The notes under the pieces were generated by a model. It ran no database searches and was not told the DNA's origin. It saw nothing but the letters and a program-made list of their open reading frames with translations. Positions 1 to 49,300 of a stretch of 56,970 bases of DNA are shown piece after piece (position 1 is the first letter of the stretch; each line of letters starts with the position of its first letter). The DNA comes from a virus (lineage: Duplodnaviria > Caudoviricetes): positions 1-56,970 of IMG/VR virus record IMGVR_UViG_3300049436_000157. The stretch is one strand, 5' to 3'. Position numbers and translations under genes: made by a program.

Positions 1-798
1 TCACTCATCTCCACCAGACGCACAACCCGTCGGTGCAGGGGACGCGCCGCAAGCGGCGCTCCCCTGACCTAGTGCGTTGTGCGTCAAAATCCGCCATGCA
101 GCCGCAGCCACTCGCGGAACCTGGGCATTTCCAAGACAGCGCAGTCTGTCCAGCCGGTCGGGAACCCCATCAACCACTCTGCCCACGTTGGGTTCACTCG
201 GCCAGTCGAGGAAGTTTTCAGCCCCTCCACTTCGGCCAACCGGCTTGCCAGTGTGTCCGCCTTGCCCCTGTGTCGGCCGCCGCATTTCCTCCCAATCGAA
301 GCGGTAAGCGTCGGCCAAAATCCAAAGCCTCTTTCTTTCGTGCGGAGCGTCGGCGTTGTCTGCGCCAACAACTCCCCATCGAGCATCAAACCCCAACTCG
401 GCCAGGTCGCCGAGAACTCGGCCCAACCCCCGAGTAGTGAGCGCTGGTGAGTTTTCCACCCACACGAATCGCGGTCGTACTTCGCCAACGATCCGCGCCA
501 TTTCCCGCCATAGGCCGCTTTCAGGCCCGTCAATCCCGGCTCCTGCTCCGGCGACGGAAATGTCCGTGCAGGGGAATCCACCGCTGACAACATGCACACT
601 CCCTGCCCAGGGCTTACCGTCGAAGGTTCGCACATCGTCCCAGATCGGGAAGGCTGGAAGCAGTCCGTCGCGCTGGCGGGCGAACAGCACGCTCCGGGCG
701 TAGGCATCAACTTCAACAGCGCAGACGGTGCGCCATCCAAGGATGGTGCCTCCCAAGATGCCTCCGCCTGCTCCTGCAAAAAGTGCCAACTCATTCAT
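1..798 (-). CDS. C5-cytosine DNA methyltransferase (alpha polypeptide), cassette 1
   Basis: Motif I LFAGAGGG, IV GGFPC, VI ENS, VIII R-x-R, X LGNAQVP. ATG at 798 with AAAGG SD. The C-terminal tail is encoded by attC1. Confidence 0.92.
   Translation of the reverse strand: MNELALFAGAGGGILGGTILGWRTVCAVEVDAYARSVLFARQRDGLLPAFPIWDDVRTFDGKPWAGSVHVVSGGFPCTDISVAGAGAGIDGPESGLWREMARIVGEVRPRFVWVENSPALTTRGLGRVLGDLAELGFDARWGVVGADNADAPHERKRLWILADAYRFDWEEMRRPTQGQGGHTGKPVGRSGGAENFLDWPSEPNVGRVVDGVPDRLDRLRCLGNAQVPRVAAAAWRILTHNALGQGSAACGASPAPTGCASGGDE
20..82 (+). repeat. attC: attC site 1 (63 bp)
   Basis: R'' GCACAAC, 5-nt spacer, L'' GGT[G]CAGG ... L' CCTGACC, 6-nt spacer, R' GTTGTGC; central GCGCCGC-AA-GCGGCGC hairpin. 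Confidence 0.9.
84..794 (-). CDS. Nested alternative-frame beta polypeptide of a two-subunit C5 methyltransferase (M.EcoHK31I-like)
   Basis: 236-aa ORF entirely inside the methyltransferase gene, starting 4 nt after its ATG (ATGAATGAG). Carries motif IX-like RVNPTWAEWLMGFPTGWTD, which the main frame lacks. Confidence 0.75.
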   Translation of the reverse strand: MSWHFLQEQAEASWEAPSLDGAPSALLKLMPTPGACCSPASATDCFQPSRSGTMCEPSTVSPGQGVCMLSAVDSPARTFPSPEQEPGLTGLKAAYGGKWRGSLAKYDRDSCGWKTHQRSLLGGWAEFSATWPSWGLMLDGELLAQTTPTLRTKERGFGFWPTLTASIGRKCGGRHRGKADTLASRLAEVEGLKTSSTGRVNPTWAEWLMGFPTGWTDCAVLEMPRFREWLRLHGGF

Positions 799-819
799 CG
801 TTACCTTTCGTCCGTTGCC

Positions 820-887
820 GCACAACAATTCGTCCAACCGTACCTCGCGCAAAAAGCGCGCGAGGCCGGTTAACTCAATCGTTAGCA
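820..887 (+). repeat. attC: attC site 2 (68 bp)
   Basis: GCACAAC-AATTC-GTCCAACC...GGTTAAC-TCAATC-GTTAGCA; closely resembles the classic 59-base-element pattern AACAATTCGTTCAAGC...GCTTAACTCAAGCGTTAG. Confidence 0.92.
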
Positions 888-1651
888 GGCAAAAGCATGT
901 CGCCCTGCACCGCCGTATCGCCAGCGCCGACTTTTGGTTCAGCGAACATTTGCTCTTGAGCCTGAGCGCCCGTCACCCTCGGCACCGCGATTCCGTGGAA
1001 ATACTCATGCTCGCGCTCAATCCCGATAAATCGCCGCCCCTCCAAGTGCGCCGCCTCGCCAGTGGTTCCGCTTCCCATGAAGCAGTCCAGAACCGTGTCG
1101 CCTGCGTTCGTGGTCAGTCGTATCAGGTGCCGCATCACGTCCACCGGCTTCTCTGCCGCGTGCGCCGTCGTCTTGCTGTTACCGGCCATCCACCGGCAGC
1201 GGTAAATGTCGCTCGCGCTCCGGTTGTCTATCTTGGCGTCTGGCATCCCGGCAAAAAGCACAACCTCGTAAGTCGGGCGCAGTTGGCGCGGCCCTGCTGG
1301 TCCGATCCATTCCTTGTCCCAAATCATCAGCGAGTCCACTTGCCATTTCACCTTAGCAAACGCATAGAGCAGTGTTGGCAGGCTGCGCCAGTTTCCGAAG
1401 ACACAGGCAAACCCATCTTGCTTCAGTGCGCGCCGCGCCAGCTTCAGCCATTCGGCGTACCACCAGGCGCTATTTTCCATGTCAGCCCATCCGCCAGCTT
1501 TCGCGCTTGCGTCGCCGGTCGAGATTGCGCCAATCATGTAGGGCGGGTCGGTTATCACCGCGTCCACGCTCATCGGCGGCAACTCCGCCATCACTTCCAG
1601 GCAGTCGCCTTGCCACAGTTCAGCGTTCCCGATTGTCACTTTCTCAGCCAT
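875..1651 (-). CDS. N4/N6 DNA methyltransferase (beta class), cassette 2
   Basis: GDCLEV, catalytic DPPY N-terminal to H-x-x-EKP and DCFMGSGTT. GGAG SD. Stop codon lies within attC2. Confidence 0.93.
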   Translation of the reverse strand: MAEKVTIGNAELWQGDCLEVMAELPPMSVDAVITDPPYMIGAISTGDASAKAGGWADMENSAWWYAEWLKLARRALKQDGFACVFGNWRSLPTLLYAFAKVKWQVDSLMIWDKEWIGPAGPRQLRPTYEVVLFAGMPDAKIDNRSASDIYRCRWMAGNSKTTAHAAEKPVDVMRHLIRLTTNAGDTVLDCFMGSGTTGEAAHLEGRRFIGIEREHEYFHGIAVPRVTGAQAQEQMFAEPKVGAGDTAVQGDMLLPAND

Positions 1652-1676
1652 CGTCACTCCGTAGTTACCGTTTGCC

Positions 1677-1746
1677 TGCTAACCCATCATTCCAGGGGAC
1701 GCTGCGCGATAAAGCCGCGCATCGCCCCTGAATTCAGGCGTTGTGC
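1677..1746 (+). repeat. attC: attC site 3 (70 bp)
   Basis: TGCTAAC-CCATC-ATT[C]CAGG...CCTGAAT-TCAGGC-GTTGTGC. Confidence 0.92.
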
Positions 1747-2300
1747 GTCTTGCACTTCGCTGCCAGCTCTACCAGCCATTGCGCCAGCTCGGGCGGTGTG
1801 TGCTCTCGTTCGGCCTTTGTGATGTGCGGCCGGTAGTCGTGTCGCTTCCGGCTTTGCACCACATAGGCCGCCTCGCCCATCACGTAGGGCAGCGGCGGTA
1901 TGTCGCCCGGCTCGCACCCCACCACGTAGAACCACGTCGCCTTTTCGGCTTTGTGGCCCCACCACTTCTGCGGCGCGGCCAGTGTCCACCCGCCGTATTG
2001 GTCGCGCTCGCCCGGCATCGGCAGCTTCTGCGCCGGCCAGAGCGTCGAGCCTGCCGGGTGCTCAAGCACGCCGCCAAACTCCCGCACCAGCGCCACCGCA
2101 AGCCGCGCCAGGTTCATCTCGTCGGGTCGTGGCCGTGCGAACGTGCGCAGCCGGCCCCACGCCCTGCAAGGCGGGTGCGCCACTACCGGGCAACCTCCGG
2201 GCCAGCGCCTGGCGTCCCTCTCAGCGTCCCACACGTCCACGCCGGCCAGTGCCTTGTAGTGGCTATCTGCGCGGGCGAAAAGTACTGCAACCGTCATCAC
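1734..2300 (-). CDS. Divergent C5-methyltransferase-like protein, cassette 3
   Basis: VVAHPPC (motif IV-like), VLEHP (VI-like), Q-x-WWGH-x-x-x-KAT (VIII-like), REHTP-x-x-LA (X-like). Canonical FxGxGG is absent. Stop lies within attC3. Confidence 0.6.
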   Translation of the reverse strand: MMTVAVLFARADSHYKALAGVDVWDAERDARRWPGGCPVVAHPPCRAWGRLRTFARPRPDEMNLARLAVALVREFGGVLEHPAGSTLWPAQKLPMPGERDQYGGWTLAAPQKWWGHKAEKATWFYVVGCEPGDIPPLPYVMGEAAYVVQSRKRHDYRPHITKAEREHTPPELAQWLVELAAKCKTHNA

Positions 2301-2770
2301 TCATCTCCACCAGACGCACAACCCGTCGGTGCAGGGGACGCGCCGCAAGCGGCGCTCCCCTGACCTAGTGCGTTGGGCGTCGTCAGCGTGATCCAGCCCC
2401 GTTGCTCTGCGCTGTCGTCGATCCGTCCTTCGTGTCCGATCAGAAGCGCCGCGTCGTTCGCCATGCGCTCTGTGCATTCGTTCTCCACGGCCGGGATGTT
2501 CGGAAGCCAGAAGAACAGCGCATCCTTCAGCCGTTGGTTTTCGGCGCGCAGTTCGTGGTTTGCTTGGTCCTTCTTCGCGTACAGGTCGGCGTCCTTGTTC
2601 GCTTGGGTCAGCGCGTCCCGAAAATCTTCAACAGCGCGGTCGCCGGACTTCACGAGCGCCAGCAGTGCGCCGGCCAAGCTCTCAGCGTCTTCGCGCCGAA
2701 TGAACGATCCATCCTCGCGCTGGTGCATGCTTCCAGGGTATGCGCTGTCGTATGCCTCAATCGTTTTCAC
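2297..2770 (-). CDS. Hypothetical coiled-coil phage protein, cassette 4
   Basis: GTG at 2770 after GGAAGGG. Reads through attC4; its stop overlaps the start of the next gene. Confidence 0.75.
   Translation of the reverse strand: MKTIEAYDSAYPGSMHQREDGSFIRREDAESLAGALLALVKSGDRAVEDFRDALTQANKDADLYAKKDQANHELRAENQRLKDALFFWLPNIPAVENECTERMANDAALLIGHEGRIDDSAEQRGWITLTTPNALGQGSAACGASPAPTGCASGGDE
2316..2378 (+). repeat. attC: attC site 4 (63 bp; same sequence family as attC1 and attC7)
   Basis: GCACAAC-CCGTC-GGT[G]CAGG...CCTGACC-TAGTGC-GTTGGGC. Positions 2297-2375 are identical to 1-79. Confidence 0.9.
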
Positions 2771-2795
2771 GTCGTTTCCCTTCCGGGCGTCCGCC

Positions 2796-2865
2796 GCCCA
2801 ACTCTGCATTCGAGCGGGACTGGCCGCATAAGGCCGCGTCCATCCCCTCAATTTGACTGTTGGGC
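2796..2865 (+). repeat. attC: attC site 5 (70 bp)
   Basis: GCCCAAC-TCTGC-ATT[C]GAGC...CCTCAAT-TTGACT-GTTGGGC. Confidence 0.9.
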
Positions 2866-2869
2866 CTCA

Positions 2870-3097
2870 TTAGTGCGGCATCCTGAATTCGCATGCCGGC
2901 GGGTTTGCCGCAATGTCCGCCAGTGCGCTTTCCAGCCATCCGCGCACGAACTCGTCTCCCTCGGTGGTCCGCAGCAGGTTGTAGCCGGCCAACATCAGCG
3001 CCCCGAGTGCGTCCGACTTCTCGCGCTTCGTTGGCAATTTGTGCATCAGCGCCCCGAGCATGTCGAGCGCCAGCTTGGCAATCTGGTCTTCATTCAT
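2870..3097 (-). CDS. Small hypothetical protein (75 aa), cassette 5
   Basis: GAGGA SD and ATG; helical composition; fills the 325-bp cassette. Confidence 0.8.
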   Translation of the reverse strand: MNEDQIAKLALDMLGALMHKLPTKREKSDALGALMLAGYNLLRTTEGDEFVRGWLESALADIAANPPACEFRMPH

Positions 3098-3125
3098 TTC
3101 GCGTTCCTCTCTTGTTCCGTCTGAG

Positions 3126-3190
3126 GCCCAACAACCGCATCGAGCGGACCGGGCGAAAAGCGGCCCGGCCCCTCATGCGGAGCGTTATAC
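3126..3190 (+). repeat. attC: attC site 6 (65 bp)
   Basis: GCCCAAC-AACCG-CAT[C]GAGC...CCTCATG-CGGAGC-GTTATAC. Confidence 0.9.
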
Positions 3191-3194
3191 GTCT

Positions 3195-3941
3195 TCATGC
3201 CGCTATCACCATTTGCACGGCTTGCGGCTCCCAAAACGTCGTCGCCTGGTGGCTCTCGATCCGCTCACGCATCACCAGCGCCCTGCATTCCTTGCTTGCT
3301 GGCGTGTAGGTGCCGCGCCAGGCCGAATAAATTCCCACGTTCTGCGCGATATTGGTGCTGTCCGCGCTGGCGAACGGCAACCGCGAGAACACATCCGGGT
3401 TCAACATCCGCAGGCCATGCAACTTGCAAACCGGGTTTCCGTTCTTGTCACACACGGCGTTCATGGCTTCGGCGATCCGGTCCCACCATCGTGCATTGCC
3501 AACGGTGGCGTACTGGCCGCTGCTGCCGAGACAGACCCGCTGCCACTCCCGCGCAAGACGCCGTAGCCGATCAATAGATTCGTGCATGTGCCAGACTGGG
3601 GCACCGACCCATCGAGATACCGCATCGACCCAAGGCCATTCAGCCAGCAACTCATCATTGGCTTTCTCATCGCCATCAATCACGTCCGGGATAACTGCAA
3701 AGTCAAAAGACGGGTATCGGTGCAACTCGGCCACCCAAGCGTAATAGCGGCTCCAGTCCGTTACCGGCTCGCCGCTTTTCCACGCCGAGAAAGCGCCGTT
3801 ATCCACCGCGAAGGACTGGCAAACCTCAAGCACAAGTCCCAACTGGTCGGGGTAGCGGAAGGACACAAACGAATGCCCTCCGCTCACTGCGGCGCGAGCT
3901 GCTGTCGCTGGCGTTATCGGTAGGCCGTGGTAGTGGATCAT
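3195..3941 (-). CDS. TGT/DpdA-like (tRNA-guanine transglycosylase-fold) phage protein, cassette 6
   Basis: Start MIHYHG at 3941 (ATGA overlap). Motifs DNGAFS, IPDVI, PVWH, LHGL and SADST resemble TGT-fold DSGxF / HxxG / SxDS motifs. Confidence 0.6.
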   Translation of the reverse strand: MIHYHGLPITPATAARAAVSGGHSFVSFRYPDQLGLVLEVCQSFAVDNGAFSAWKSGEPVTDWSRYYAWVAELHRYPSFDFAVIPDVIDGDEKANDELLAEWPWVDAVSRWVGAPVWHMHESIDRLRRLAREWQRVCLGSSGQYATVGNARWWDRIAEAMNAVCDKNGNPVCKLHGLRMLNPDVFSRLPFASADSTNIAQNVGIYSAWRGTYTPASKECRALVMRERIESHQATTFWEPQAVQMVIAA

Positions 3942-4213
3942 TTGCGCTCCGTGGTCGCAGCCGTATAACCCGTCGGTGCAGGGGACGCGCCGCAAGCGGC
4001 GCTCCCCTGACCTATGGCGTTGGCAGGCAATGGCCGCCATCCCTGCGGCTCGCCATACATGCCGTGCCACGTCCACCCGCCGCCGTTGAAGTCGATCCAT
4101 GTCGCCTCGACAACCTGCTCCCACTGTCGCTTTTCCACGCCCTTTGCGTACTGTCGGTACGGGTGGTGCATCAGCATGTGGATCACCGTTCCATCCTTGG
4201 GTGCCGTTTCCAT
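3938..4213 (-). CDS. DUF551-like phage protein; C-terminus extended through attC7
   Basis: (EWRP)METAPKDG ... P-x-GWRPLP family signature. Start uncertain, because the conserved WRP lies upstream of the only ATG. Confidence 0.7.
   Translation of the reverse strand: METAPKDGTVIHMLMHHPYRQYAKGVEKRQWEQVVEATWIDFNGGGWTWHGMYGEPQGWRPLPANAIGQGSAACGASPAPTGYTAATTERK
3963..4025 (+). repeat. attC: attC site 7 (63 bp)
   Basis: GTATAAC-CCGTC-GGT[G]CAGG...CCTGACC-TATGGC-GTTGGCA. Confidence 0.9.
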
Positions 4214-4265
4214 CGGGCGCCATTCCGTATCGGCTGTTGATTGAGCCTGCTGGAGAAGGGTGTCC

Positions 4266-4607
4266 TTACGCGGTCTTGAGGTTGGCGGTGGTGATGTCGG
4301 TCGTGCTGGGGATGCTCTTCAGGTCGAGCTTGGTCTGGCGCGGATCGTCGGCGACAAGGTGGCCTTCCGGGGTGGCGAACAGCATCGCCTCCATGGGCTC
4401 TTCGGCCGGCTTGGTGAGTTTGACGTTGCCGGTGATGTGCATGGCGCCTCCTCGGGTGGCTTTCTTCACCTTGATTTCGATGACCAGCTTGCCGGCCTTC
4501 CCGCTGCCGTCGACGGCGCTGACCAGTTCGGCCATCTTGTCGCTGGCGGTGTCGATGAAGATCCCGCCGCCGATGTGGCGCAGGGTGTCGGTGATGGGTT
4601 TGCTCAT
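4266..4607 (-). CDS. Hypothetical phage early protein
   Basis: AGGAG SD, start MSKPITDTL, strong GC3 bias. Confidence 0.8.
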   Translation of the reverse strand: MSKPITDTLRHIGGGIFIDTASDKMAELVSAVDGSGKAGKLVIEIKVKKATRGGAMHITGNVKLTKPAEEPMEAMLFATPEGHLVADDPRQTKLDLKSIPSTTDITTANLKTA

Positions 4608-4641
4608 GGCTTCTTCTCCTTCTGGGTGGGTAGTGCTGCCG

Positions 4642-6369
4642 TTAGGCAGCGGCTTGGTAGTGGCTGATCTCGCCCCGTTCCATCCAGAACGCCTGGAAGG
4701 TGTCACCGGGCAGCGTCGGCAGGCCCTTCAGGGTGGCGAAGATCAGGGCCGTGTCGATCTCTCCGGCGGTGGCCAGTCCGTGGAGCCAGCGCAGGAGGGT
4801 GGACCGGTTGCCCATGTCCAGCACATCCATCCGGTCCAGGGCGATCAGGCTCAGGCCGGATACGTGGGCGATGGCCTCGGCCAGGGACGCATCGGCCCGC
4901 CAGCGGGCGGACTCGCTGCACAGGCTGTAGAGCCTGCCGCCGATGCGCACGCTCATGTCGGGATCCACGGCAACCTGTGCCCATCCGGTGGCCGAGGCGG
5001 TAGCGCGCAGCCGGTCGTTGAACGGCTTGATGGCATCTGACAGCAGTTCGCCCGGGATGCCATCCGGAGCCAAGGCGTCGGCGATCTTGAGCCAATCCTT
5101 CAGGTGCTGGTGGTTCTCGGCAGCGGCCCGGGTCTTCTTGTCGGCGGCGGTTGCCTTGCGCTGGGCATCTTCGACGAGACGGATGGCCGCCTGGTGGTTG
5201 GCCGCTTCGTGCTTGAGGTTGGCGATCGAGCTTTCCAGGTCGGCGATCATCTCGGCGGTGACCGTATCCGGCGTGGCCTCGATCTCCTGGAGGGAGGCCG
5301 CGGCGGCCTTGGCTTGCTCCAGGTCGCGCTCTCCGTTGGCCACGGAGCGCACCATGACTTCCAGCGCCCGTTCGTACTCGGGCAGGGCTTCGCGTGCCTC
5401 CGGGTCTGCCTTCTGGGCCGGCGCTTCGTATTCGACCAGAGCGCCGTCGGCGTGCCGGTGCATGAGGATGGATCCGCAGCTCGGGCAGGTGTAGGACGGA
5501 GGGGTTTCGGTGCTTCCGGAGGCCTTCGCCCGGGTGGCTTCCACCTTGGCCTGCCACTCGGCCATGTCGCCCCGGTCCTTCTCAAGCTTGGCGGTGATTC
5601 TGCCGATATTGCCGGCCTGCTCCTGGAGCCCGGCCACCTTGGCGCGACGCTCGTCCTGCTGGCGCTTCATCGCCCGGAGTTCGCCCATACGCTCCGTGTC
5701 GGCGGATATGCGCTCATTCGCGGCAGCCAGGGCCGCCTTGGTTTCGTCCAGGCCGGTGGTGTCGATCGCCGGCTTTTCCGCTTTCCAGGTCTCGGCCTTC
5801 TTTTCGCCGTAGGTCTCGCCGGTGATCTGCTTCCAGGCGCCGCGGCACTCGGTCGCCTTGGTCTTGGCATAGTCATGGGCGGCCGGGAAGCCTGAGACCA
5901 GCAGCGGGGCAACGGCTTCCGCCTTGTCGGCCGAGCAGCCGCGGTCGATCATCTTCTGCCGGATGGCTTTGGGCGCGGCAGAGGATCCGGTCAGGGCAAA
6001 GAGCATGCTGCGGCGCTCGTTGTCCTCGAGGCTGGCGAAGCGCGGCGGATCCAGCACGAATGGCAGGGCGCCGTGGATCGGGTCGCCGCTCATCGTGCGC
6101 TTGCCATCCGGCAGGGTGATGGCCACCTCGCCGGCGGTGTGCTTGATCAGGACCGATGCCGCCTTGGCGCCGTCTCGGACCAGCGCGGGGTAGTCCTTCT
6201 TCAGCTTGACGCGGACCACCTCGCCGGTCATGGCCAGGCGGATGGCCTCCTGCATGCTGGTCTTCCCCTGCTCGTTGCCGCCGGCCACCAGGACGACGGG
6301 CCGGTCGATGGCCAGTCCGATGTCGGTGATGGCCTGGAAGTTCTGGATGTTGATGGCGGTGATCTTCAC
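4642..6369 (-). CDS. Rad50/SbcC-like ABC ATPase
   Basis: IQNFQ, Walker A GGNEQGKTS, coiled coils around a CPSC zinc hook, LCSES signature, Walker B LIALD. Confidence 0.88.
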   Translation of the reverse strand: MKITAINIQNFQAITDIGLAIDRPVVLVAGGNEQGKTSMQEAIRLAMTGEVVRVKLKKDYPALVRDGAKAASVLIKHTAGEVAITLPDGKRTMSGDPIHGALPFVLDPPRFASLEDNERRSMLFALTGSSAAPKAIRQKMIDRGCSADKAEAVAPLLVSGFPAAHDYAKTKATECRGAWKQITGETYGEKKAETWKAEKPAIDTTGLDETKAALAAANERISADTERMGELRAMKRQQDERRAKVAGLQEQAGNIGRITAKLEKDRGDMAEWQAKVEATRAKASGSTETPPSYTCPSCGSILMHRHADGALVEYEAPAQKADPEAREALPEYERALEVMVRSVANGERDLEQAKAAAASLQEIEATPDTVTAEMIADLESSIANLKHEAANHQAAIRLVEDAQRKATAADKKTRAAAENHQHLKDWLKIADALAPDGIPGELLSDAIKPFNDRLRATASATGWAQVAVDPDMSVRIGGRLYSLCSESARWRADASLAEAIAHVSGLSLIALDRMDVLDMGNRSTLLRWLHGLATAGEIDTALIFATLKGLPTLPGDTFQAFWMERGEISHYQAAA

Positions 6370-6611
6370 GCTGCGGCCCTCCTGCTGATGGTCTGGTACT
6401 CGGTGCGGTCGATCATGGTGACGACGTGCCGGCCCGGTGTCGGCGGCTTCTCCTTTGCGTCGGCGTCCCGGTACTGCTGCTGCTGGGAGGCCATGAAGCG
6501 ATCAACATCCCAGGCGCGATGTTGGGTAGCGATGACGGCGCCGGTCTTCGTGTCGGTGACCTTCACGAACACGTCTCGCCCGGTCAGTTCCTGGTTGATG
6601 GAGGCGGCCAT
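6366..6611 (-). CDS. Hypothetical protein
   Basis: Tightly coupled to both neighbours in the recombination operon. Confidence 0.7.
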   Translation of the reverse strand: MAASINQELTGRDVFVKVTDTKTGAVIATQHRAWDVDRFMASQQQQYRDADAKEKPPTPGRHVVTMIDRTEYQTISRRAAA

Positions 6612-6613
6612 GG

Positions 6614-7780
6614 CTATTCCGCCTGGAACATATCGCTGCCACCGGTGCCGGCCGGCTTGGCATTGGCGATGGACACGTTGATCTGACGCTGCTGGTTCTC
6701 CGGCAGGCCGCGGGCGATGTCCCGGGCCATATCGAAGTCGCCGGACTTGACGGCCGACATGGCGTCGTCGAAGGTTGGGGCGCCAGAAGCTGCGCGTACT
6801 GAAGAAACCTCGGCGCTTACCGTCCCTACAGAAACCGTTTCCGCGTCTGCTTCGATGTGGGTGGTCACCGTTTCAACCTCCTGATGCTCCAGCGCAGGAG
6901 GTTCGGCGCCTTCCTCGAACACTTGGCTGATGGTGGCCGGGTCGGCCATGGCGGAAAAATCGACGGCCCGCTCGTCCAGCTGGCTTGCGATGGCGATAGG
7001 GTCGTTTGATGCCAGCGGAAGCCTCGAGTTGATGATCTTCTTGATCACCGTCTTGCTTGCCATGGTGTCCTCGTGCATCACCCATGGCGTGTCGGCGAGT
7101 TTCTGCGCGGCCTTGGCGCGGTCCTTGTCGCTGTCGGCTTGATCGACGGCGCGAACCAGTGAGTTGTAGGTTTCGGACTTGGAGCGCGCCTTGTAGATTT
7201 CGTCGAGCGGCAGGGTCAGGGCTACCTCGTTGCCGTTCTTCATCTTGATGAGGCAGTAGGCGCCGACCAGCGGTCCACGGTCCTTGAGGGCCTTCCTGAA
7301 CCGGACCAGGCCGGTGCTACCCTGCATGTGCTCGAATTCGTCTCGTTCGTGGATCGCCTCGGCCTCGAGGGACGCTACGTTTGGACTGCGGTAGGCCAGG
7401 GTGATGAATCCCTTGTAGCCGATCTGGAATTGGCACTCGGTTCCGATGACGCCCCATTTTCCGTTCGGCAGCTTGCCGCGCTTGTCGTAGGGGATCAGGT
7501 ACGCCTGCCCGGCCGGCGTGTTGGGCTCAAGTCCAAGGGCGGCGGCGGCCATGAACGCACCGAGCACGCTCTGCGGGTCGCACTGGGCGAGCTTCGGGGT
7601 CTTGCGGATCGCATTGACGCAGAGCGCCAGCATGCGGTCTCCGGTCATGTAGCGGCCGGCCATGGCCGTCATCTGCTTCTTGGTCTTCTCGGCGCCGAGC
7701 AATTGCAGGATATTGGCCCGAGGCTGGCTTGCTGCTGGTGTGCCCCCTTCCTTCAGGGTGGCGATGTTGGTCGCGCTCAT
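6614..7780 (-). CDS. recT: RecT-family single-strand annealing protein
   Basis: PKLAQCDPQS...LGLEP...GQAYLIPY...QFQIGYKG...MASKTVIK. Confidence 0.93.
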   Translation of the reverse strand: MSATNIATLKEGGTPAASQPRANILQLLGAEKTKKQMTAMAGRYMTGDRMLALCVNAIRKTPKLAQCDPQSVLGAFMAAAALGLEPNTPAGQAYLIPYDKRGKLPNGKWGVIGTECQFQIGYKGFITLAYRSPNVASLEAEAIHERDEFEHMQGSTGLVRFRKALKDRGPLVGAYCLIKMKNGNEVALTLPLDEIYKARSKSETYNSLVRAVDQADSDKDRAKAAQKLADTPWVMHEDTMASKTVIKKIINSRLPLASNDPIAIASQLDERAVDFSAMADPATISQVFEEGAEPPALEHQEVETVTTHIEADAETVSVGTVSAEVSSVRAASGAPTFDDAMSAVKSGDFDMARDIARGLPENQQRQINVSIANAKPAGTGGSDMFQAE

Positions 7781-7801
7781 GGTCTGGTGGTCTCCAGTGA
7801 A

Positions 7802-8617
7802 TTATTCGTGATAGATACAGGTGTCGAAAACAGGGCAAAACTTCTCCCCGCACATGAAGCTGCGCGGGTTCGGCGGAAACAGTCCGGTGCGGAACATCTC
7901 GGCGGCGAACTGGATCAGGCCCGGCATGGTGTCGGTGCCGACCATGATCCGTTTCGGGTTGATCACCGAGGCGGTGGCCACTTCCAGAGTGCCCTTGGTC
8001 TTGAGGCCGATGATCTCCGCCGGCTCGGTGATGGCCTGGCCGGTGGTGTGCTCGTGCAGAAGCTCATAGGTGCCGAGCTGGGCGCCGTGGCCATCGATCT
8101 TGGCCGCGCCTTTCTGCACCGCCGTGGCGCCGCTTTTCAGGTCGGCGATGCCCAATCCGCTGGTCCCCTGCTTGAGGCGTGAGCGGTCCATCGTGCCGGT
8201 CAGGCGGACGATGACGCCGTTGCCGCAATCAATGTCCATGGGCTTTGTTTCAAGCTCAACCCCGGCGAAGGTGTAGCGCGGGCTGATCTCGGCGCAATAC
8301 TTTGAGTGCAGCGTCAGGCCAATCTTCTCGGCCTCCGGCATGGTCAGATCGTCCAGGTTCATGTCGACCTCGGCGGCCGATTCCTTCAGGGAGTCGACCA
8401 CGGCGCCGGCGGCGTCCGTTGGGGTCAGGCCCTGGCCGTTCATGCGGCTGGTGTCGTAGATGGCCGTGGCCCTGTGGATGGCCGTGCCAAGGGCCATGCG
8501 CAGGCCGATGGGGTTGCGCTTCTTGTCGATGTGGATGGCGTGCCAGCGCATGGCGCAGTCGAATAGCGCGCCCCAGCTGGAGGCGCGGACCGTCATCGAC
8601 GGGGTGATTTCGTTCAT
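7802..8617 (-). CDS. PD-(D/E)XK exonuclease (RecB/Cas4-like)
   Basis: GTAIH, LTGTMD, IADLKSG, QLGTY; one N-terminal plus three C-terminal Cys; adjacent to recT. Confidence 0.85.
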   Translation of the reverse strand: MNEITPSMTVRASSWGALFDCAMRWHAIHIDKKRNPIGLRMALGTAIHRATAIYDTSRMNGQGLTPTDAAGAVVDSLKESAAEVDMNLDDLTMPEAEKIGLTLHSKYCAEISPRYTFAGVELETKPMDIDCGNGVIVRLTGTMDRSRLKQGTSGLGIADLKSGATAVQKGAAKIDGHGAQLGTYELLHEHTTGQAITEPAEIIGLKTKGTLEVATASVINPKRIMVGTDTMPGLIQFAAEMFRTGLFPPNPRSFMCGEKFCPVFDTCIYHE

Positions 8618-8620
8618 TGT

Positions 8621-8827
8621 TCAGTCCTCGTGGTGGTCGTGGTTGACGCCGTGGTTCTTGCAGGCCTTGCAGCGCCTGGCATTACGGTTTTCGTCCTGGG
8701 TCAGGGTCCGGTCGAAGGCGACGCAGTGCGCGGCGCCGAAGATCCGCGCCAGGTGCCCGCAGTGCGCCGGGCAGATTCCGTCGGCCAGGCCCGGGGAGTA
8801 GTTCAGGTGCTCGGCGGTGGTGGTCAT
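8621..8827 (-). CDS. Small Cys-rich protein
   Basis: CPAHC..C..CKAC; ATGA overlap with the upstream gene. Confidence 0.6.
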   Translation of the reverse strand: MTTTAEHLNYSPGLADGICPAHCGHLARIFGAAHCVAFDRTLTQDENRNARRCKACKNHGVNHDHHED

Positions 8828-9108
8828 CGGGTGGCCTCCCATCTCGTCGGGAGCCCGTCAATGCGGCGGACCACTTCGCGCTCAGCCATCCGCCGGCAGA
8901 CATTGGTGATCGTCGACGGGGACATGTCGCCCAGGTCAAAGTAGATGTCGGTGATCGAGGCCTGGCCTATCCGCTTGATGGCCATCAGCACGCGGTCATC
9001 CTTGGCCCGGTCCGACTGGCGGCGCGACTGGATCCGGCGCTGCTTAGCTGTCACTGGAGAAACGAGCGGCTTGCAGCCTCCGATCGCCAGATTCCACATG
9101 GATGTCAT
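8824..9108 (-). CDS. Winged-HTH-like protein
   Basis: VLMAIKRIGQASITDI...SPSTITNVCRRM...V-x-R; ATGA overlaps. Confidence 0.65.
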   Translation of the reverse strand: MTSMWNLAIGGCKPLVSPVTAKQRRIQSRRQSDRAKDDRVLMAIKRIGQASITDIYFDLGDMSPSTITNVCRRMAEREVVRRIDGLPTRWEATR

Positions 9109-18598: not shown

Positions 18599-18915
18599 GA
18601 TATTCGACAAGAATCCGGAGCATCTCCATGGTAGTCAGGAGAGCTAAATCAGGTGTCGTTGATCACTTGGTTGAAATACGTGGGCTTTGGCTGTTCGGTG
18701 GTGCTCTGCGCGGGCAGGACTGCGGTGATATCGATATCGCCTTTGACTTCTCGACTGTTGGCAAGAATCCAGTATGGAGACCTGGTAATACTTGGCGTTG
18801 CCCAGAAAATGTGACGATTGCCCTAATAGAGTTGAGAAGAGGGATCAAGAGAATTGACTTTCATCCTCTTGATGAGATTGAAAGGCTTGGTGCCATCAAG
18901 ATGCGCTTGGTATGA
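18595..18915 (+). CDS. Minimal nucleotidyltransferase-like protein (low-GC insertion)
   Basis: LWLFGGALRG...GDIDIAF resembles the pol-beta hG[GS]..DxD motif; visibly AT-richer than the flanks. Confidence 0.55.
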   Translation: MRYSTRIRSISMVVRRAKSGVVDHLVEIRGLWLFGGALRGQDCGDIDIAFDFSTVGKNPVWRPGNTWRCPENVTIALIELRRGIKRIDFHPLDEIERLGAIKMRLV

Positions 18916-19364
18916 CCACCATCGCCTGGGACGGGACCACCCTTGCCGCCGACCGGTGCAGCTGGGCCGGAAGCGGAATCCGCAGGCGCGCCCGCAAGGT
19001 GTTCAAGGTGAAGGCAGCGGATGGCCGCCTGTTCCTGGTGGCATTTGCTGGTAATGGCGCCTTCGCCCTAGCGGTTCTCGACTGGATGCGCGGTAATCGA
19101 GAGGCTCCGTTCTTCAGGGACTACATGAACGACGGCAGTCCGGACGATACCTGCTGCGTCTGCATCGACGAGCGGCGGCGCGTCTGGGTGCTCAATGCCA
19201 GGCTGTCGTGGATCCAATTTCCAGAGAAGGTGTTTTCCACCGGCGCCGGCCAGGAGTTCGCCTGGGGCGCCCTGGAGGCCGGAGCCTCGGCCAGGCGCGC
19301 GATCGAGATCGCCATGAAGCGCAGCGACTATGCCGGCCTAGGGGTGGATTGCGTAAGGTTCTGA
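18912..19364 (+). CDS. Ntn-hydrolase (proteasome beta/HslV-like) protein
   Basis: N-terminal MTTIAW..LAAD, K, AFAG, STGAG..FA-x-GAL..A..A-x-EIA. Confidence 0.75.
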   Translation: MTTIAWDGTTLAADRCSWAGSGIRRRARKVFKVKAADGRLFLVAFAGNGAFALAVLDWMRGNREAPFFRDYMNDGSPDDTCCVCIDERRRVWVLNARLSWIQFPEKVFSTGAGQEFAWGALEAGASARRAIEIAMKRSDYAGLGVDCVRF

Positions 19365-19426: not shown

Positions 19427-19846
19427 ATGGGAGCAGTCCTCGACCTTTCCAAGGCCTTCAAGCATCGCCAGCACGGCGACCTGCTGGCCATCTACACCTG
19501 GTTCAACGATGAGCGGGCCCTGATCCTGCTCCCCGCCTACCGGAAGAACGCGGCCTGGTTCATCATCCTCGAGCCCGCGGCCTGGAAGTACGACAACCCG
19601 CGCTATCTGGCCCAGCAGGCCGTCAAGGCCTGCGAGGTGGTGGGCATCGAGCCTTCGACCGCGAACTGGCGCCGCATCGCCAACATCATCATCGAGGGCC
19701 TTCCCGACCTGATCGAGATGCCCAGCCAGCCGGATCCGGTCCTGTCCAGGGCGACCATCGGGGAAATGAAGCTCTTCGCCGACGGCGAGCTGCTGGGCGG
19801 CGAGGAAATCCGCCTGGAGGTGGAGACCGGGGCGACCTATGGGTGA
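19427..19846 (+). CDS. Hypothetical protein upstream of the portal
   Basis: GGAG SD; strong codon bias. Confidence 0.8.
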   Translation: MGAVLDLSKAFKHRQHGDLLAIYTWFNDERALILLPAYRKNAAWFIILEPAAWKYDNPRYLAQQAVKACEVVGIEPSTANWRRIANIIIEGLPDLIEMPSQPDPVLSRATIGEMKLFADGELLGGEEIRLEVETGATYG

Positions 19847-28594: not shown

Positions 28595-29608
28595 ATGAGC
28601 AAAAACGACGATTCCGCCCCCACCGACCGCGATGCCGCACTGGCCGGCCTGACCGACGAGGAGCGCGCGGCCATTGCCGATGACGAGTTCAGCGAAGAAG
28701 AGCGCAACAGGCTGCAGGAGATTGCCGGAGACGACGACTCGGACGACGATGACGACGACGATGGCGAGGACTACGACGAGGGGGGCGGCGCCGCGAGCGG
28801 AGATGCCTCCGGAAAGCCGGCGGCCGGGGCCTCCGATGATGCTGGCGACGGCGGCGACGCGGGAGATGACGGCGCCCCCTCTGGCGAAGACGATGACGAC
28901 GAGAGCTATCGCCCGCGTTATCAGGTCCAACTGCCCGAGGACTTCCAGCAGCGCGTCCAGGCCCTGGAGGAGCAGGAAGTGGAACTGGCGAAGAAGTTCA
29001 GGTCCGGCGAGATCGAAGCCGAGGACTTCCTGGCCGAGAACAAGCGCATCGCCAAGGAGCGCCGCGATCTCGACAAGCTCGAGACGAAGCACGAGATCGC
29101 CGAGGAGTTCAACGCCCAGACCGCAGAGCAGGAGTGGGTGGGCACCGTCAATCGGTTCCTGCGCAAGGTGAAGGCCGAGGAAGGCATTGATTACCGGTCG
29201 GGTGACATGTCCGATGACTTCGACTCCCTGATCAAGACGCTGGCCGCCAACCCGAAGCACCAGGGCAAGAGCTACCAGTTCTTCCTCGAGCAGGCCCACA
29301 AGGCCACCAAGGCGCTGCACGGCATCGGCGACAAGAAGCCTCCCAAGGCGCAGGATGATCCGCACAAGAAACCGGCAGCCGCCGCGGACCCCGGGAAGCC
29401 TGCCCCAAAAGCCGACGGCAAGCCCGCTGCGCGCAAGCCGCCGGTGGATCAGGTGCCCAAGACGCTGGCCAACGTCCCCGGGGGAGAAGGCCCGGGCGAT
29501 GTCGAGGACGAGTTCTCCCACCTCGATTCACTGGACGGCCTGGAGTATGAAACGGCCTTGGCCAGCATGTCGCCCGCCCAGCGCGAGCGGTACCTGAAAG
29601 CCGCGTGA
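28595..29608 (+). CDS. Capsid scaffolding protein
   Basis: Highly acidic, coiled-coil, C-terminal helix pair (MSPAQRERYL); precedes the capsid gene. Confidence 0.8.
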   Translation: MSKNDDSAPTDRDAALAGLTDEERAAIADDEFSEEERNRLQEIAGDDDSDDDDDDDGEDYDEGGGAASGDASGKPAAGASDDAGDGGDAGDDGAPSGEDDDDESYRPRYQVQLPEDFQQRVQALEEQEVELAKKFRSGEIEAEDFLAENKRIAKERRDLDKLETKHEIAEEFNAQTAEQEWVGTVNRFLRKVKAEEGIDYRSGDMSDDFDSLIKTLAANPKHQGKSYQFFLEQAHKATKALHGIGDKKPPKAQDDPHKKPAAAADPGKPAPKADGKPAARKPPVDQVPKTLANVPGGEGPGDVEDEFSHLDSLDGLEYETALASMSPAQRERYLKAA

Positions 29609-29811
29609 TGCCCTCGCCGGCGGTGTCCCAGATGACCGTCGATGTCCGCCCCGGGCAGCATCTGCTGCTCGATGGGCGGCGGATCGTTGTGGAGCTTCTG
29701 GACAAGAGCGGGAAGCTGGCCAGACTGCGGGTGACCGCGCCGCGAGACATGAAGATCGAGAAGGAAGAAGGGGATTCGCCTCGCGCCATGCGTGGCAATG
29801 TAGCGCCGTAG
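29605..29811 (+). CDS. CsrA-like small protein
   Basis: DVRPGQHLLL..IVVELL..GKLARLRVTAPRDMKI resembles the CsrA beta pattern. Confidence 0.5.
   Translation: MMPSPAVSQMTVDVRPGQHLLLDGRRIVVELLDKSGKLARLRVTAPRDMKIEKEEGDSPRAMRGNVAP
29780..29802 (+). promoter_or_regulatory. Late-gene motif, copy 3
   Basis: CTCGCGCCATGCGTGGCAATGT, about 75 bp upstream of the major capsid gene. Confidence 0.6.
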
Positions 29812-46392: not shown

Positions 46393-49300
46393 ATGGCTCG
46401 ATACGAGATCACTTCTCCCGACGGGCGCCGGTTCGAGGTAACGGCGCCCGACGACGCCGGCCAGGACGATGTTCTGGCCTACGCCCAATCGAATTTCGGC
46501 AGCAAAGATCAGGACGGTGGTGGGCGCTCCGTTCTCGATGTCGTTTCGGCCGGTATCCACGGAATCGTTGACGATGTGCGCGGCGGAATATCCAGGATCG
46601 ACGCCAGGCGGCGCGAGGAATCGATTGCTCGCAGCAATGCGGCCAATCAAGAAATGCTGGCCACCAGCAGAGCATCCGGAACCTCTGCTGAACTCGAGCG
46701 TCAGGCGTTGGCCAAAGACGCGGCAGCCAGGTACCAAAATGATCCGGTGAAGCGCGGAATCGACTTCGGCCGTGATCTTGCATTGAGCAGTGCGCAAGGG
46801 GTAGTCGGACTAGGCGAGGCGGCCGTCGGTATCGGCGATCTGGCCACCGGCTGGACCGGATATACGCCGGGCCAGGCGCTGAAGGATACCGTTGGGTACG
46901 ATCCAGAGCGCACCAAGTCTTCGATCATTGGCGACCTGAAGAGCGATTCCGGCAAGGCCCGGGATGCAATCTACCAGGGCACCAAGGGATTCACCGAGAC
47001 ACTGCTGACCCTGGGCGCCGATCCGGCAATGCTGGCCGACAAGATCACCGAGTCGCTGGCGGGAACGGTTGGGGCTGGCGCCATCGGCGGCAAGGTGGTG
47101 CAGATGGCGCTGCCCAGGGTCACAGCTGCCGCGTCGGCGGCCGGGTTGTCTGGGGCCGAAGCCGAGGCCTTTATTGCCGACCGCCTGGCCAAGATCGCCA
47201 TTGGTGCCTCTGCTGGTGCGGAAGGGGCGCAGCAGGCTGGCAACCTCGCGGAGACAGCGCGCCAAGGGGGGAAGTCTTGGCGTGACTACGCGCTGCCGGC
47301 CATTGCCTCCGGGATTGGCACGGGCGCCATTGCCGCCGGTTCTGGCGCCTTGGCCAAGAAGATCGGTATCGGCGACATCGAATCGGACATTGCCCTGCGC
47401 GGGCAGCGGCCGGGCCTCAAGACTGACCATGGGTTCGCCGTGAATCGTGCCGCCATCGAGGGCATCAAAGAGGGTTCCCTGGAGGAGATGCCGCAGTCCG
47501 TCCAGGAATCGGCCTGGGAGAACGTCGCCATGGGGCGGCCGTGGGACGAGGGGCTGGGCAAGGCTGCGGCCTCTGGCCTGGCAACTGGCGCAGGAATGGG
47601 TGGCGGTCACGCCGCGGTCAGCCGGCCATCGGAGTCAGTACCATCCGAGCCGCTGGCAAATACCGCAGGCGGGGGTAATGCAATCCATGCGGGTGATGTG
47701 CTCGGCTCGCCGGTGGTTGAGGCTTCGCCGGGAGCGGGTAGTGCGCCGGCGGTGGCCGCCGTGCCGACGGAATCCGACAAGGCGCTCTACACGCCCAAGA
47801 GCCTGACGGCCCTCGACAGGGTTCAGGAAATCGACATGCGCCTGGCGGCGCCCGATCTTGCCCAGGGCGAGGCCCAGTCGCTGAGCGCGGAACGGGACGG
47901 AATCACGGCGTCCTGGCCCACGGCAACGCCAGGCGTGCCCACGTCCTTTTCCACGGAGACCGGAGCCCGCATCAACGGCCAGTACGCCCTGATGGAAGCC
48001 GGAGACCTGACCACTTCCCACGACGAGAACCTGCGGCCGGTCGGCACGTACCCGGTGGAGCTTCAGCCCCGCGAGCGGGAACGCCATGCCTCGGAGATGC
48101 AGGTCCAGCAGATCGTCGGCAAACTGGATCCGGCCCGGCTGGGCGAATCGGCAGACGCCGCCACCGGCGCGCCGATCGTTGGTGCCGACGGGCTGGTGGA
48201 ATCCGGAAACGCCCGGACCATTGCCCTGAAGCGCGTCTACCAGGCCAACGGCCAGAAGGCGCTCGACTACCGGCAGTTCCTGAAGGACAACGCCGGGCGC
48301 TTCGGTATCACACCAGAATCCGTCGATGCCCTGCAGAAGCCTGTGCTGGTGCGGGTGCGCAGCACCCCGGTGAATCGGGCCGAGTTCGCGCGCCAGGCCA
48401 ACGCCTCGACCGTGGCGCGCATGAGCCCGTCCGAGCAGGCGAGGTCCGACGCCGCGGCGATCGACAGCCTGGACGACCTGAACCCGGACGACGCGGGAGA
48501 TTTCACGTCCGGAAGCTCGCGGCCGTTTATCCGCCGCTTCCTGGCCAAGTTGCCAGGCACCGAGCAGGCCGGCATGATCGACGCCGGCGGGCAACTCTCC
48601 CAGGCCGGCTATGCGCGGATCCGCAATGCGGTGCTGGCCAAGGCCTACGGCGACTCGCCAGTGCTGCTGCGCATGGTGGAAAGCCTCGACAACAACCTGC
48701 GCAACGTCACGGCCGGCCTGATGCGCGTGGCTCCCCAGGTGGCCAAGGCCCGCGAGGCCATCGCCGATGGCGCCCTGTTCGATGCCGACATCACCCAGGA
48801 TCTGATGGCCGCCGTCGAGGAGCTGGCGACCTTGCGCGACAAGGGCACCTCGGTGGCCGACTACCTGGCGCAGTCCAGCATGTTCGGCGACAGCCTGTCG
48901 CCGGAGGGCCGCGAGCTTCTGATGTTCCTCGCGGACAATATCCGCAGTCCCCGGCGCATCGCCGAATTCATCCAAGCATACCTTGAAGCCCTGACGGCCG
49001 CCGGCAACCCGGCCCAGGGCTCCGTGTTCGGCGAGCAGCAGGCGCCGGCCAAGGCCGATCTCATGGCTGCCGCTGCAAGGAGTCAAGGCGATGCCAAGCA
49101 ACCAGGATCCACTGATGCCGGTCAAGTTGCCGGGAACCAAGGCGCTATTGGACAAGGTGAAGGCCAGCCCGCGAATCAGGCAGGCGATCCGCGCGGCGCT
49201 CAAGGCGATGCGGGCGCCAGCGAATGGGTAGCCTTCCCGCCTGAGAGCGGCACGCTCGGCATCCCCCGGGCGGACATGCCACAGATCAAGGGCGAGCACC

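Follow-up and report, generated by a model that had tools for sequence, protein, structure and literature searches.

A gene array punctuated by hairpins at the end of a provirus

We analyzed an entire IMG/VR provirus record, IMGVR_UViG_3300049436_000157 (the window; 56,970 bp, with a CheckV completeness rating of 100%), at the left end of which (positions 1–4030) six genes, C1 to C6, alternate with seven hairpins. The hairpins and all genes within 1–4213 lie on the minus strand. From the left edge inwards the genes are: C1 (1..798), a C5 cytosine DNA methyltransferase of 265 amino acids with its ATG at 798; C2 (875..1657), an N6-adenine/N4-cytosine DNA methyltransferase of the beta class with a DPPY motif; C3 (1734..2300), a protein of 188 amino acids with a minimal C5-methyltransferase fold; C4 (2297..2770), a protein of 157 amino acids read from a GTG at 2770, with a coiled-coil-like middle and a hairpin-encoded tail; C5 (2870..3097), a protein of 75 amino acids; and C6 (3195..3941), a solo DpdA-type 7-deazaguanine DNA transglycosylase of 248 amino acids. 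At the array boundary there is a further open reading frame (ORF) of 91 amino acids (3938..4213), which reads into the innermost hairpin.

PHROG and Pfam scans of the called ORFs reveal a temperate-type layout. The minus strand, from 9141 down to 1, codes for a PD-(D/E)XK exonuclease, RecT, an SbcC-like ATPase and a phrog_204 protein, followed by the cassette region; the plus strand, from ~13 kb onwards, bears the replication, terminase, portal, lysis, head, tail and internal-virion genes. The array thus occupies the distal end of the early-left operon, RecT and the exonuclease being encoded upstream of it, and is contiguous and co-oriented with it, a gap of only ~50 nt separating the phrog_204 gene from the 91-amino-acid ORF. 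The same position in P22-like phages holds a solo DpdA and other accessory genes. A DNA search for near-identity with positions 1–9000 against 50,697 phage records returned a single match, a 300-nt stretch 81% identical in a Ralstonia phage. On the left the record starts with the stop codon of C1, and on the right it finishes with that of an ORF of 3,525 amino acids; bounded by stop codons at both ends, it was cut at gene boundaries. The first 23 bases at its left edge are identical to positions 2297–2319, the leader and ribosome-binding site before C3, and hence the cut has probably left out at least one further cassette that starts like C3.

Anatomy of the hairpins

An ~85-nt repeat is present four times in the window, where a strict hairpin pattern has four matches as against none in 100 shuffles. 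A covariance model, R1, built from 20 distinct hairpin copies, recovers seven gene-strand sites, all within 16–4029 and one per gene junction, the best score elsewhere in the 57 kb being 12.4 bits. These are: hairpin 1 (16..86, with its AAC..GTT core at 24–78), which follows C1 at the window edge and also matches the strict pattern (90.1 bits, E 2.9e-22); hairpin 2 (816..891), a diverged copy between C2 and C1 (32.6 bits, E 2.1e-6); hairpin 3 (1673..1750), of a second sequence type with a different terminal stem (80.6 bits); hairpin 4 (2312..2382; 87.6 bits), which encodes the tail of C4; hairpins 5 (2792..2869; 44.1 bits, E 1.4e-9) and 6 (3122..3194; 25.6 bits, E 1.8e-4), both of a third sequence type; and hairpin 7 (3959..4029; 80.9 bits), upstream of C6 at the inner end of the array. 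The initial annotation had placed the cassettes between 77 and 4019, which are the G|TT points of the outermost hairpins in a plus-strand reading.

In integron attC sites the inverse-core and core boxes contain conserved AAC and GTT triplets, a spacer is left unpaired, the inner stem has bulged bases and the terminal stem is variable. The window hairpins share this anatomy in their fold, pairing and invariant boxes: each has AAC/GTT ends, a spacer that is left unpaired, an inner stem whose 3′ arm bears a bulged base, and a terminal stem of variable length and sequence. As single-stranded DNA, hairpin 1 folds at −30.2 kcal/mol (z −5.4). Over the 20 copies AACG, TCAGGGG, TCCCCTG and GGGTT are invariant, and the inner helix is 95.3% paired, with seven pairs changed on both sides and a covariation score of 0.208 (0.099 in shuffles, of which 0/500 reached the observed value). 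The boxes of hairpin 5, GCCCAAC and GTTGGGC, agree with the consensus RYYYAAC/GTTRRRY. With seven sites on one strand within 4 kb, 250–780 nt apart, the array falls within the definition of a cluster of attC sites lacking an integron integrase (CALIN), namely at least two co-oriented attC sites lying close together. In Rfam no family matches; the sole hit (23.3 bits, E 0.56) is nowhere near the gathering score. We also considered a REP-like (repetitive extragenic palindromic) element of the host or a miniature inverted-repeat transposable element, and rejected both, as the strict pattern occurs in only five stretches among 185,579 species genomes.

Several ORFs extend into the hairpins. C1, C4 and the 91-amino-acid ORF read through them in the same frame (1–85, 2297–2381 and 3938–4028, minus strand) and would therefore end in a common hairpin-encoded tail (...NALGQGSAACGASPAPTG...); in C1 the final 25 codons lie across hairpin 1. 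C3 goes into its hairpin in this frame as well (..THNA), with an immediate stop, and a likely cassette ORF beside a host intI gene, described below, likewise enters its hairpin in that frame (..LTPNV..).

An account without integron-type recombination has to be weighed here, namely that this is an ordinary "ea"-type accessory region of a lambdoid prophage, in which the hairpins act at the RNA level or in regulation, as processing sites, stabilizers or promoter–terminator units like the promoter-early stem-loops (PeSLs) of T4-type phages, and the genes are exchanged by homologous recombination, perhaps through RecT. Consistent with it, the hairpins are always co-oriented with transcription (the 4/4 strict copies in the window and 12/12 viral loci) and lie just 5′ of ribosome-binding sites; the RecT/exonuclease pair adjoins the array; and in the P22-like phage BTP1 a solo DpdA occupies this map position without requiring cassettes. 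In T4-type phages, PeSL repeats are reported to shuffle genes and form mini-circles (PMC2839356). Against regulatory units of this kind, positions 1–4700 have no sigma-70-like promoter (0, where 1.0 is expected), none of the five terminator-like sites found coincides with a hairpin, and the hairpins carry neither a promoter nor a T-run.

Boundaries, turnover and polarity of the cassettes

In all six cassettes of the window the 5–10 bases that follow the GTT at the cassette start are the exact reverse complement of the bases that precede the AAC at that cassette's own end, as in the pairs GTTGTGCG / CGCACAAC at hairpin 2 and GTTGGGCCTCA / TGAGGCCCAAC at hairpin 6. Over all eight arrays considered, and with an extension of at least 5 nt beyond the triplet required and the array L043 excluded as a duplicate of L044, a recount found this signature in 32/46 cassettes, as against 23/416 non-adjacent control pairs; between the two ends of one hairpin it was seen in 6/63 cases. 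Such complementarity between a cassette's start and its own inverse core is classically the mark of a circular integron intermediate.

Comparison of related arrays shows what is exchanged. The arrays L044 and L045 have a single block of 851 nt in common, at 94.8% identity and with unrelated DNA on both sides, which starts at the AAC of the hairpin lying upstream of DpdA and stops at that of the following hairpin; the exchanged unit is thus a hairpin with its downstream ORF. Six further pairs have the downstream flank in common and differ in the upstream flank, and no pair is of the opposite kind. The classical assignment, in which each hairpin belongs to the ORF upstream of it, was rejected in view of the L044/L045 block and of this 6-to-0 split. 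When the 46 cassette ORFs were compared all against all, only DpdA was common to arrays at high identity. The body of hairpin 3 recurs beside other genes in L001, L003, L006, L008 and L012. The suggestion of the initial annotation that the cassettes are swappable is hence borne out by the attC-like bounds of the units, their boundary signature and their turnover between relatives.

Homologous exchange in an accessory region predicts neither the reverse-complement cassette ends (6/6 in the window against the control rate above) nor a homology break exactly at the AAC, and the same hairpin model matches sites beside a true integron integrase gene. We therefore regard the "ea"-type account as unlikely.

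The DNA-modification enzymes

The assignments made for C1 and C2 in the initial annotation, a C5 and an N4/N6 methyltransferase, stand. C1 matches PF00145 at 1.9e-24 (87.2 bits against a gathering cut-off of 22) and phrog_363 at 5.5e-57, and its sequence displays FAGAGGG, GFPC, ENSP and GNAQVP, corresponding to motifs I (FxGxG), IV (PC), VI (ENV) and X (GN). C2 matches PF01555 (N6_N4_Mtase) at 6.4e-39 (134.6 bits against a cut-off of 26.7) and phrog_67 at 5.5e-62, with DPPY and FMGSGTT present; adenine-specific models, CcrM among them (2.9e-24), match in part and under the curated cut-off, and N6 is not distinguished from N4 specificity.

At E 0.01 or better C3 matches nothing in Pfam (PF00145 included) or NCBIfam; among the PHROGs it matches phrog_12600 at 1.7e-70. 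Its AlphaFold model, with a predicted local distance difference test score (pLDDT) of 95.7, resembles C5 cytosine methyltransferases only, and does so over its whole length: the best Foldseek match is M.HaeIII (1dct, E 5e-4), and the 50 matches listed by VIA-align are all C5 methyltransferases, with Z-scores of 9.4 for DNMT3A/B and 9.2 for M.HhaI over residues 1–184, the best match (Z 9.4) spanning residues 1–182. Among 61 family sequences P43 and P44 are invariant, and H42, C45, E80 and H81 are at least 90% conserved, so that C3 retains HPPC and LEHP, the counterparts of the catalytic PC and ENV motifs. It has no target-recognition domain, for which its 188 residues leave no room. Searches against the sequences of solved structures yielded no match with the single sequence and only one chance match (E 1.8) with a profile; hhalign of the C3 family against C1 gave a probability of 1.8%, though it aligned HPPC with GFPC. 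The family is very large and unnamed: at E 0.001 one library contains more than 7,600 member proteins, and another 1,895 representative clusters. Of 18 longer relatives scanned, four bear domain fusions (a D12 N6-methyltransferase in two, a weak ParB_N and a GHKL ATPase), which are suggestive only. Family members also occur in Microviridae (Tortoise microvirus 37, Rhodobacter phage Ebor and a Ciona-associated microvirus), in an 11-kb Xanthomonas phage and in Mu-like Pseudomonas phages, and their phage annotations vary between hypothetical, putative DNA methylase and ParB-like.

The start of C6 is at 3941 rather than 4223. The protein has a match at 2.4e-75 to phrog_887 (named queuine tRNA-ribosyltransferase), and relatives are found in 105 phage records. 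Its identity is 42.6% with DpdA from Pantoea phage MED16 (gp38; tblastn 2e-42) and 53% with the solo gene of BTP1, which there lies between the recombination genes and xis/int. In a comparison with 48,161 solved chains the best match was the DNA preQ0 (7-cyano-7-deazaguanine) insertase DpdA (7ui4; Z 9.4, root-mean-square deviation 3.5, 161 residues aligned), and the only other chains at Z 8 or above, four in all including 7ui4, were of an archaeosine tRNA-guanine transglycosylase (TGT), a bacterial TGT and QTRT2. At the sequence level no Pfam family, including the TGT family PF01702, was found at E 0.01 or better, and there were no matches to the sequences of solved structures with either the single sequence or a profile. 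The family invariants are D47 (in DNG), D86 and D194 (in SADST), which may correspond to the catalytic residues of TGTs. Taken together, phrog_887, the MED16 homology and the TGT-type barrel agree with the earlier description of C6 as TGT/DpdA-like.

The two remaining cassettes are less readily placed. For C4 no Pfam, NCBIfam or PHROG family was found at the thresholds used, the lone PHROG match, phrog_25267, being weak (1.8e-4); only 30 homologs were found, all unnamed. A function for C4 was also sought through the Atlas, where the best named neighbor, Ead/Ea22 (0.82), lies under the lead level and was set aside. C5 has no family in Pfam, PHROGs or NCBIfam. Both are candidate anti-defense genes, as proposed initially, from their position only. 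The 91-amino-acid ORF likewise has no family and no hairpin detected upstream of it, and its identity with one hairpin-bounded cassette ORF of L044 is 34%. None of these three proteins has a nuclease family in the Pfam, PHROG and NCBIfam scans, although small proteins could escape a sequence search, and no dpdB/dpdC-like ATPase or nuclease partner was detected in the array or the window. The absence of a recognizable cognate restriction nuclease noted at the outset is thereby upheld, as an absence of matches rather than as proof.

That orphan methyltransferases and 7-deazaguanines protect phage DNA is established (PMC6884629, PMC9892861). One may nevertheless consider that the array is real and that its modification genes serve the lysogen, either in epigenetic regulation or in self-marking against a nuclease encoded elsewhere by the host or a prophage, such as a Dpd-like or type IV-related system. 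Bacterial DpdA is reported to be part of a restriction-modification system (PMC10164549), the low-level dADG (2′-deoxy-7-amido-7-deazaguanosine) of MED16 had no anti-restriction effect in tests (PMC8306585), and bacterial integron cassettes reportedly often carry defense systems (bioRxiv 10.1101/2024.07.02.601686), all of which would fit such a role. It is countered by the want of a nuclease partner or dpdB/dpdC-like ATPase in the array or window, by the placement of the genes within an early lytic operon and by a Lar-like restriction-alleviation cassette in one relative, which points to counter-defense. On balance we hold a lysogen-serving role to be improbable.

Elsewhere in the record, an ORF of 139 amino acids beside the portal gene (19427–19846, plus strand) matches phrog_10057, named DNA methyltransferase, at 1.9e-12, with no match in Pfam or NCBIfam, and from its sequence may be a further modification gene outside the array. 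The 3,525-amino-acid ORF that ends the record (46393–56970, plus strand) has ddrB-ParB (3e-34) and MuF_C (4.5e-9) matches, a weak GNAT match and a match to a primase-like PHROG; in domain content it resembles the polyvalent, virion-delivered proteins that have been linked to counter-defense. The structural region also holds an HslV-family peptidase-like gene (18912–19364, plus strand; phrog_1040, 3.5e-26) and a CsrA-like regulator (29605–29811, plus strand; phrog_8397, 8.4e-10).

Related arrays

The strict hairpin pattern was found in 12 stretches of viral contigs in addition to the five among species genomes, and by the R1 model the relatives have arrays of 4 to 13 sites, the genes of which are almost wholly different. 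Their positions in the phage genomes vary: in L045 the array lies between the terminase/portal genes and the lysis/DnaB genes, in L006 it is followed by xis, int and the tail genes, and in L005, L007, L010 and L011 it is lodged between terminase and portal. The arrays retrieved with DpdA as query form a biased set; among them, L040 has four methyltransferases and DpdA among its nine cassettes; L044 has DpdA, a radical-SAM (S-adenosylmethionine) protein and a PAPS (3′-phosphoadenosine-5′-phosphosulfate)-reductase-like protein (2710–3693 and 7599–8456, plus strand) among its 12, with a methyltransferase just past the last hairpin. In the arrays found by the hairpin alone, two methyltransferases and one DpdA adjoin an outermost hairpin without being bounded by two. 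Over the relatives, the commonest recognizable cargo is methyltransferases, and the typical cassette is a small ORF without known function.

Host integrons with the same site type

Four bacterial metagenome-assembled genomes (MAGs) contain the hairpin. An integron integrase scores above the curated cut-off of 265 bits in two of them (479.8 and 457.2 bits), the other two containing fragments, and in none of 14 control genomes. The phage hairpin model also recognizes two sites beside the intI gene of one MAG (40.6 bits, E 2.4e-9; 22.3 bits, E 2.7e-4). In this integron (L110, 1492–3314; MAG G008), whose intI scores above the cut-off, the attC sites match the phage model on the strand that points toward intI. 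The likely cassette ORFs come after the hairpins on that strand and run toward intI, and one of them has a good ribosome-binding site; the entire lineage may use cassettes with this "reversed" arrangement.

Since integrons with the same site type occur in MAGs of the host lineage, one has to ask if the array stems from a chromosomal integron of the host and was included in error by the provirus caller, which would make its methyltransferases and DpdA host cassettes. The array does lie at the extreme left of a record cut at gene boundaries, and neither an integrase nor an att site is seen. Yet it continues without a break in orientation, across the ~50-nt gap, into the phage early operon; C3 and C6 belong to phage-typical families; phage genes flank the arrays on both sides in L045, L006, L005, L007, L010 and L011; and the strict pattern remains confined to five stretches among the species genomes. 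We consider misplaced host DNA very improbable.

The interpretation and what it has to overcome

Taken as a whole, positions 1–4030 are probably an integron-type cassette array, without an integrase of its own, in a temperate phage of an uncultured Burkholderiales-like host, with a DNA-masking cargo. The array would be a cluster of attC-like sites lacking an integron integrase, with seven AAC...GTT hairpins delimiting six single-ORF cassettes, and the cassettes would move as a hairpin plus its downstream ORF by site-specific recombination at the AAC/GTT boxes. The record has no recombinase, so we infer the agent that swaps them: a host integron integrase acting on the phage arrays is most likely the catalyst and is the leading, though unproven, mechanism. 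As intact orphan methyltransferases, C1 and C2 are predicted to place methyl groups on phage DNA, C1 on C5 of cytosine and C2 on N6 of adenine (or N4 of cytosine). C3 is a stripped C5-methyltransferase fold that keeps the catalytic Cys and Glu and is devoid of the SAM loop. C6 may swap some guanines for a 7-deazaguanine derived from host-made preQ0. Together, these enzymes most likely mask the phage DNA from the restriction systems of new hosts. The identities of the genes, the structure of the hairpins, the boundary signature, the turnover of cassettes between relatives and the integrase of the host lineage are observations; what we infer for this phage in particular comprises the enzymatic activities, the protection from restriction and the identity of the recombinase.

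The preQ0 step draws on work on other phages: a phage dpdA expressed alone inserts dPreQ0 (2′-deoxy-preQ0) into DNA, and most hosts of DpdA-only phages make preQ0 (PMC6884629). QueC, the maker of preQ0, is found in no frame of the phage record and is clearly present in two of the four hairpin-holding MAGs; lacking genes for preQ0 synthesis, the phage must obtain the substrate from its host.

Several observations weigh against one or another part of this interpretation. As regards the recombination, the provirus is cut at both ends, so the outer (left) end of the array is unseen; no intI lies beside the array within the record, where a complete integron would have one, though an integrase may lie beyond the left cut. 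The six frames of the record have no match to the tyrosine recombinase family PF00589 at E values up to 1 and no Y1 transposase in any frame. The integrase of L006, the only one seen beside such an array, was rejected as an integron integrase, as it scores 29 bits against the cut-off of 265 and is an ordinary phage integrase; a 99%-complete hairpin-carrying relative has no tyrosine recombinase at all. The arrangement is also not that of classical cassettes, in which the ORF lies on the attC top strand with its own attC downstream: because the exchanged unit is the hairpin and its downstream ORF, and because the coding strand has its bulged bases in the 3′ arm, the evidence suggests that the ORFs are on the attC bottom strand, the reverse of the classical order.

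As regards the cargo, C3 lacks the glycine loop that binds SAM, having VLFARADSHY where FxGxG is expected (family consensus LFxxxDSxYK), and for this reason may not be a methyltransferase; of its initial description as a PPC-motif C5-methyltransferase-like protein, the fold and the PC and Glu motifs are sustained, whereas methyl transfer is doubtful. The model of C6 is weak (pLDDT 63.8), and Foldseek on it returned only generic triosephosphate isomerase (TIM) barrels, at E 0.026 or worse. The DNA of MED16, the phage with the closest tested solo DpdA, carries dADG, but only at ~0.13% of G and with no visible hindrance of the restriction enzymes tried, and the DNA of Orion, a DpdA-only phage, is reported as unmodified (PMC8306585). 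Only 9 of 80 DpdA loci carry a hairpin at E 0.01 or better, so that 71/80 close-relative loci are without one. Finally, while DNA-modification types make up four of the six cassettes in the window (C1, C2, C3 and C6) and five of the nine in L040, in keeping with the earlier claim that such enzymes dominate the cargo, this does not extend to the arrays found by the hairpin alone: there, 4/37 bounded cassettes code for methyltransferases and 29/37 have no known function, the other four being a DHH phosphoesterase, an HNH endonuclease and an RNA ligase (L001, 6995–7591 and 7682–8422, plus strand), and a Lar-like restriction-alleviation protein (L012, 2029–2301, minus strand; 2.5e-7).

A bolder version may be entertained, in which temperate phages of uncultured Burkholderiales-like bacteria maintain integron-type cassette banks that they do not themselves recombine, the host integrase shuffles cassettes between the bacterial integron and the phage bank, the ORFs lie on the attC bottom strand and the C3 family performs a non-methyl cytosine modification; jointly, these propositions are doubtful. 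Were they true, the machinery that stores bacterial anti-phage cassettes would also stock phage counter-defense genes, and an ORF on the attC bottom strand, with the hairpin 5′ of the gene, would be readable from the phage early promoter.

Comparison with known systems

Integrons are bacterial gene banks, known for antibiotic resistance and more recently for anti-phage defense. The phage lineage described here carries long arrays built on the site type of its hosts' integrons, with DNA-masking enzymes as the commonest recognizable cargo. If host integrases move these cassettes, phage and host would draw on one recombination system toward opposite ends in the arms race, and the small cassettes without known function would form a ready list of candidate counter-defense genes. 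Two enzymes stand out from the array, namely a solo DpdA borne on a cassette and a minimal, widespread C5-methyltransferase fold that has no SAM loop.

Like sedentary chromosomal integrons, the array has AAC/GTT boxes, an unpaired spacer, a bulged inner stem and a variable terminal stem; near-identical sites on unrelated cassettes within a lineage; tightly packed small ORFs, mostly without known function; and cassette starts complementary to their own inverse core. It differs from them in lying in a phage record without intI, attI or Pc (the cassette promoter) and being read from the phage early operon, and in that a hairpin and its downstream ORF are exchanged, rather than an ORF and its downstream attC.

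Phage attC clusters with orphan methyltransferases were already published in 2023, and the present array is a richer case of an idea that is not new. According to Qi et al. (PMC9892861), the phage genomes that they scanned hold 17 attC clusters without an integrase and five methyltransferase cassettes, some phage attC sites recombine with attI1 through the class 1 integrase, and escape from restriction was proposed as the benefit. Full-text searches of the later literature on this theme brought up nothing closer; the supplementary tables of Qi et al. lay outside the comparison and might list relatives. Their CALINs resemble the present array in being phage-borne attC arrays without intI, with single-ORF cassettes and orphan methyltransferases as notable cargo. 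They are defined by a minimum of two attC sites, with three in TJE1, whereas here there are seven sites and six cassettes, and up to 13 sites in relatives; further differences are that the cargo here includes DpdA and a C5-methyltransferase fold without the SAM loop, that the ORFs appear to lie on the attC bottom strand and that the site type is common to integrons of the host lineage. What is added here is thus the length of the array, DpdA and the C3 family as cassettes, the cassette-precise replacement seen by comparison, the reversed polarity and the link to host integrons.

The PeSLs of T4-type phages, as described by Arbiol et al. 2010 (PMC2839356), are alike in that stem-loop repeats flank non-essential ORFs in plastic regions subject to shuffling and the formation of circles. 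They are, however, promoter and terminator units that are exchanged through homologous recombination, while the hairpins here have no promoter or T-run and instead display AAC/GTT boxes and the integron boundary signature. The solo DpdA phages, namely BTP1, MED16 and Salmonella phage 7-11, have a homologous protein, in the case of BTP1 at the same map position, and lack genes for preQ0 synthesis as does this phage; the difference is that here dpdA is a discrete hairpin-bounded cassette, whereas hairpins are missing at most loci of its close relatives.

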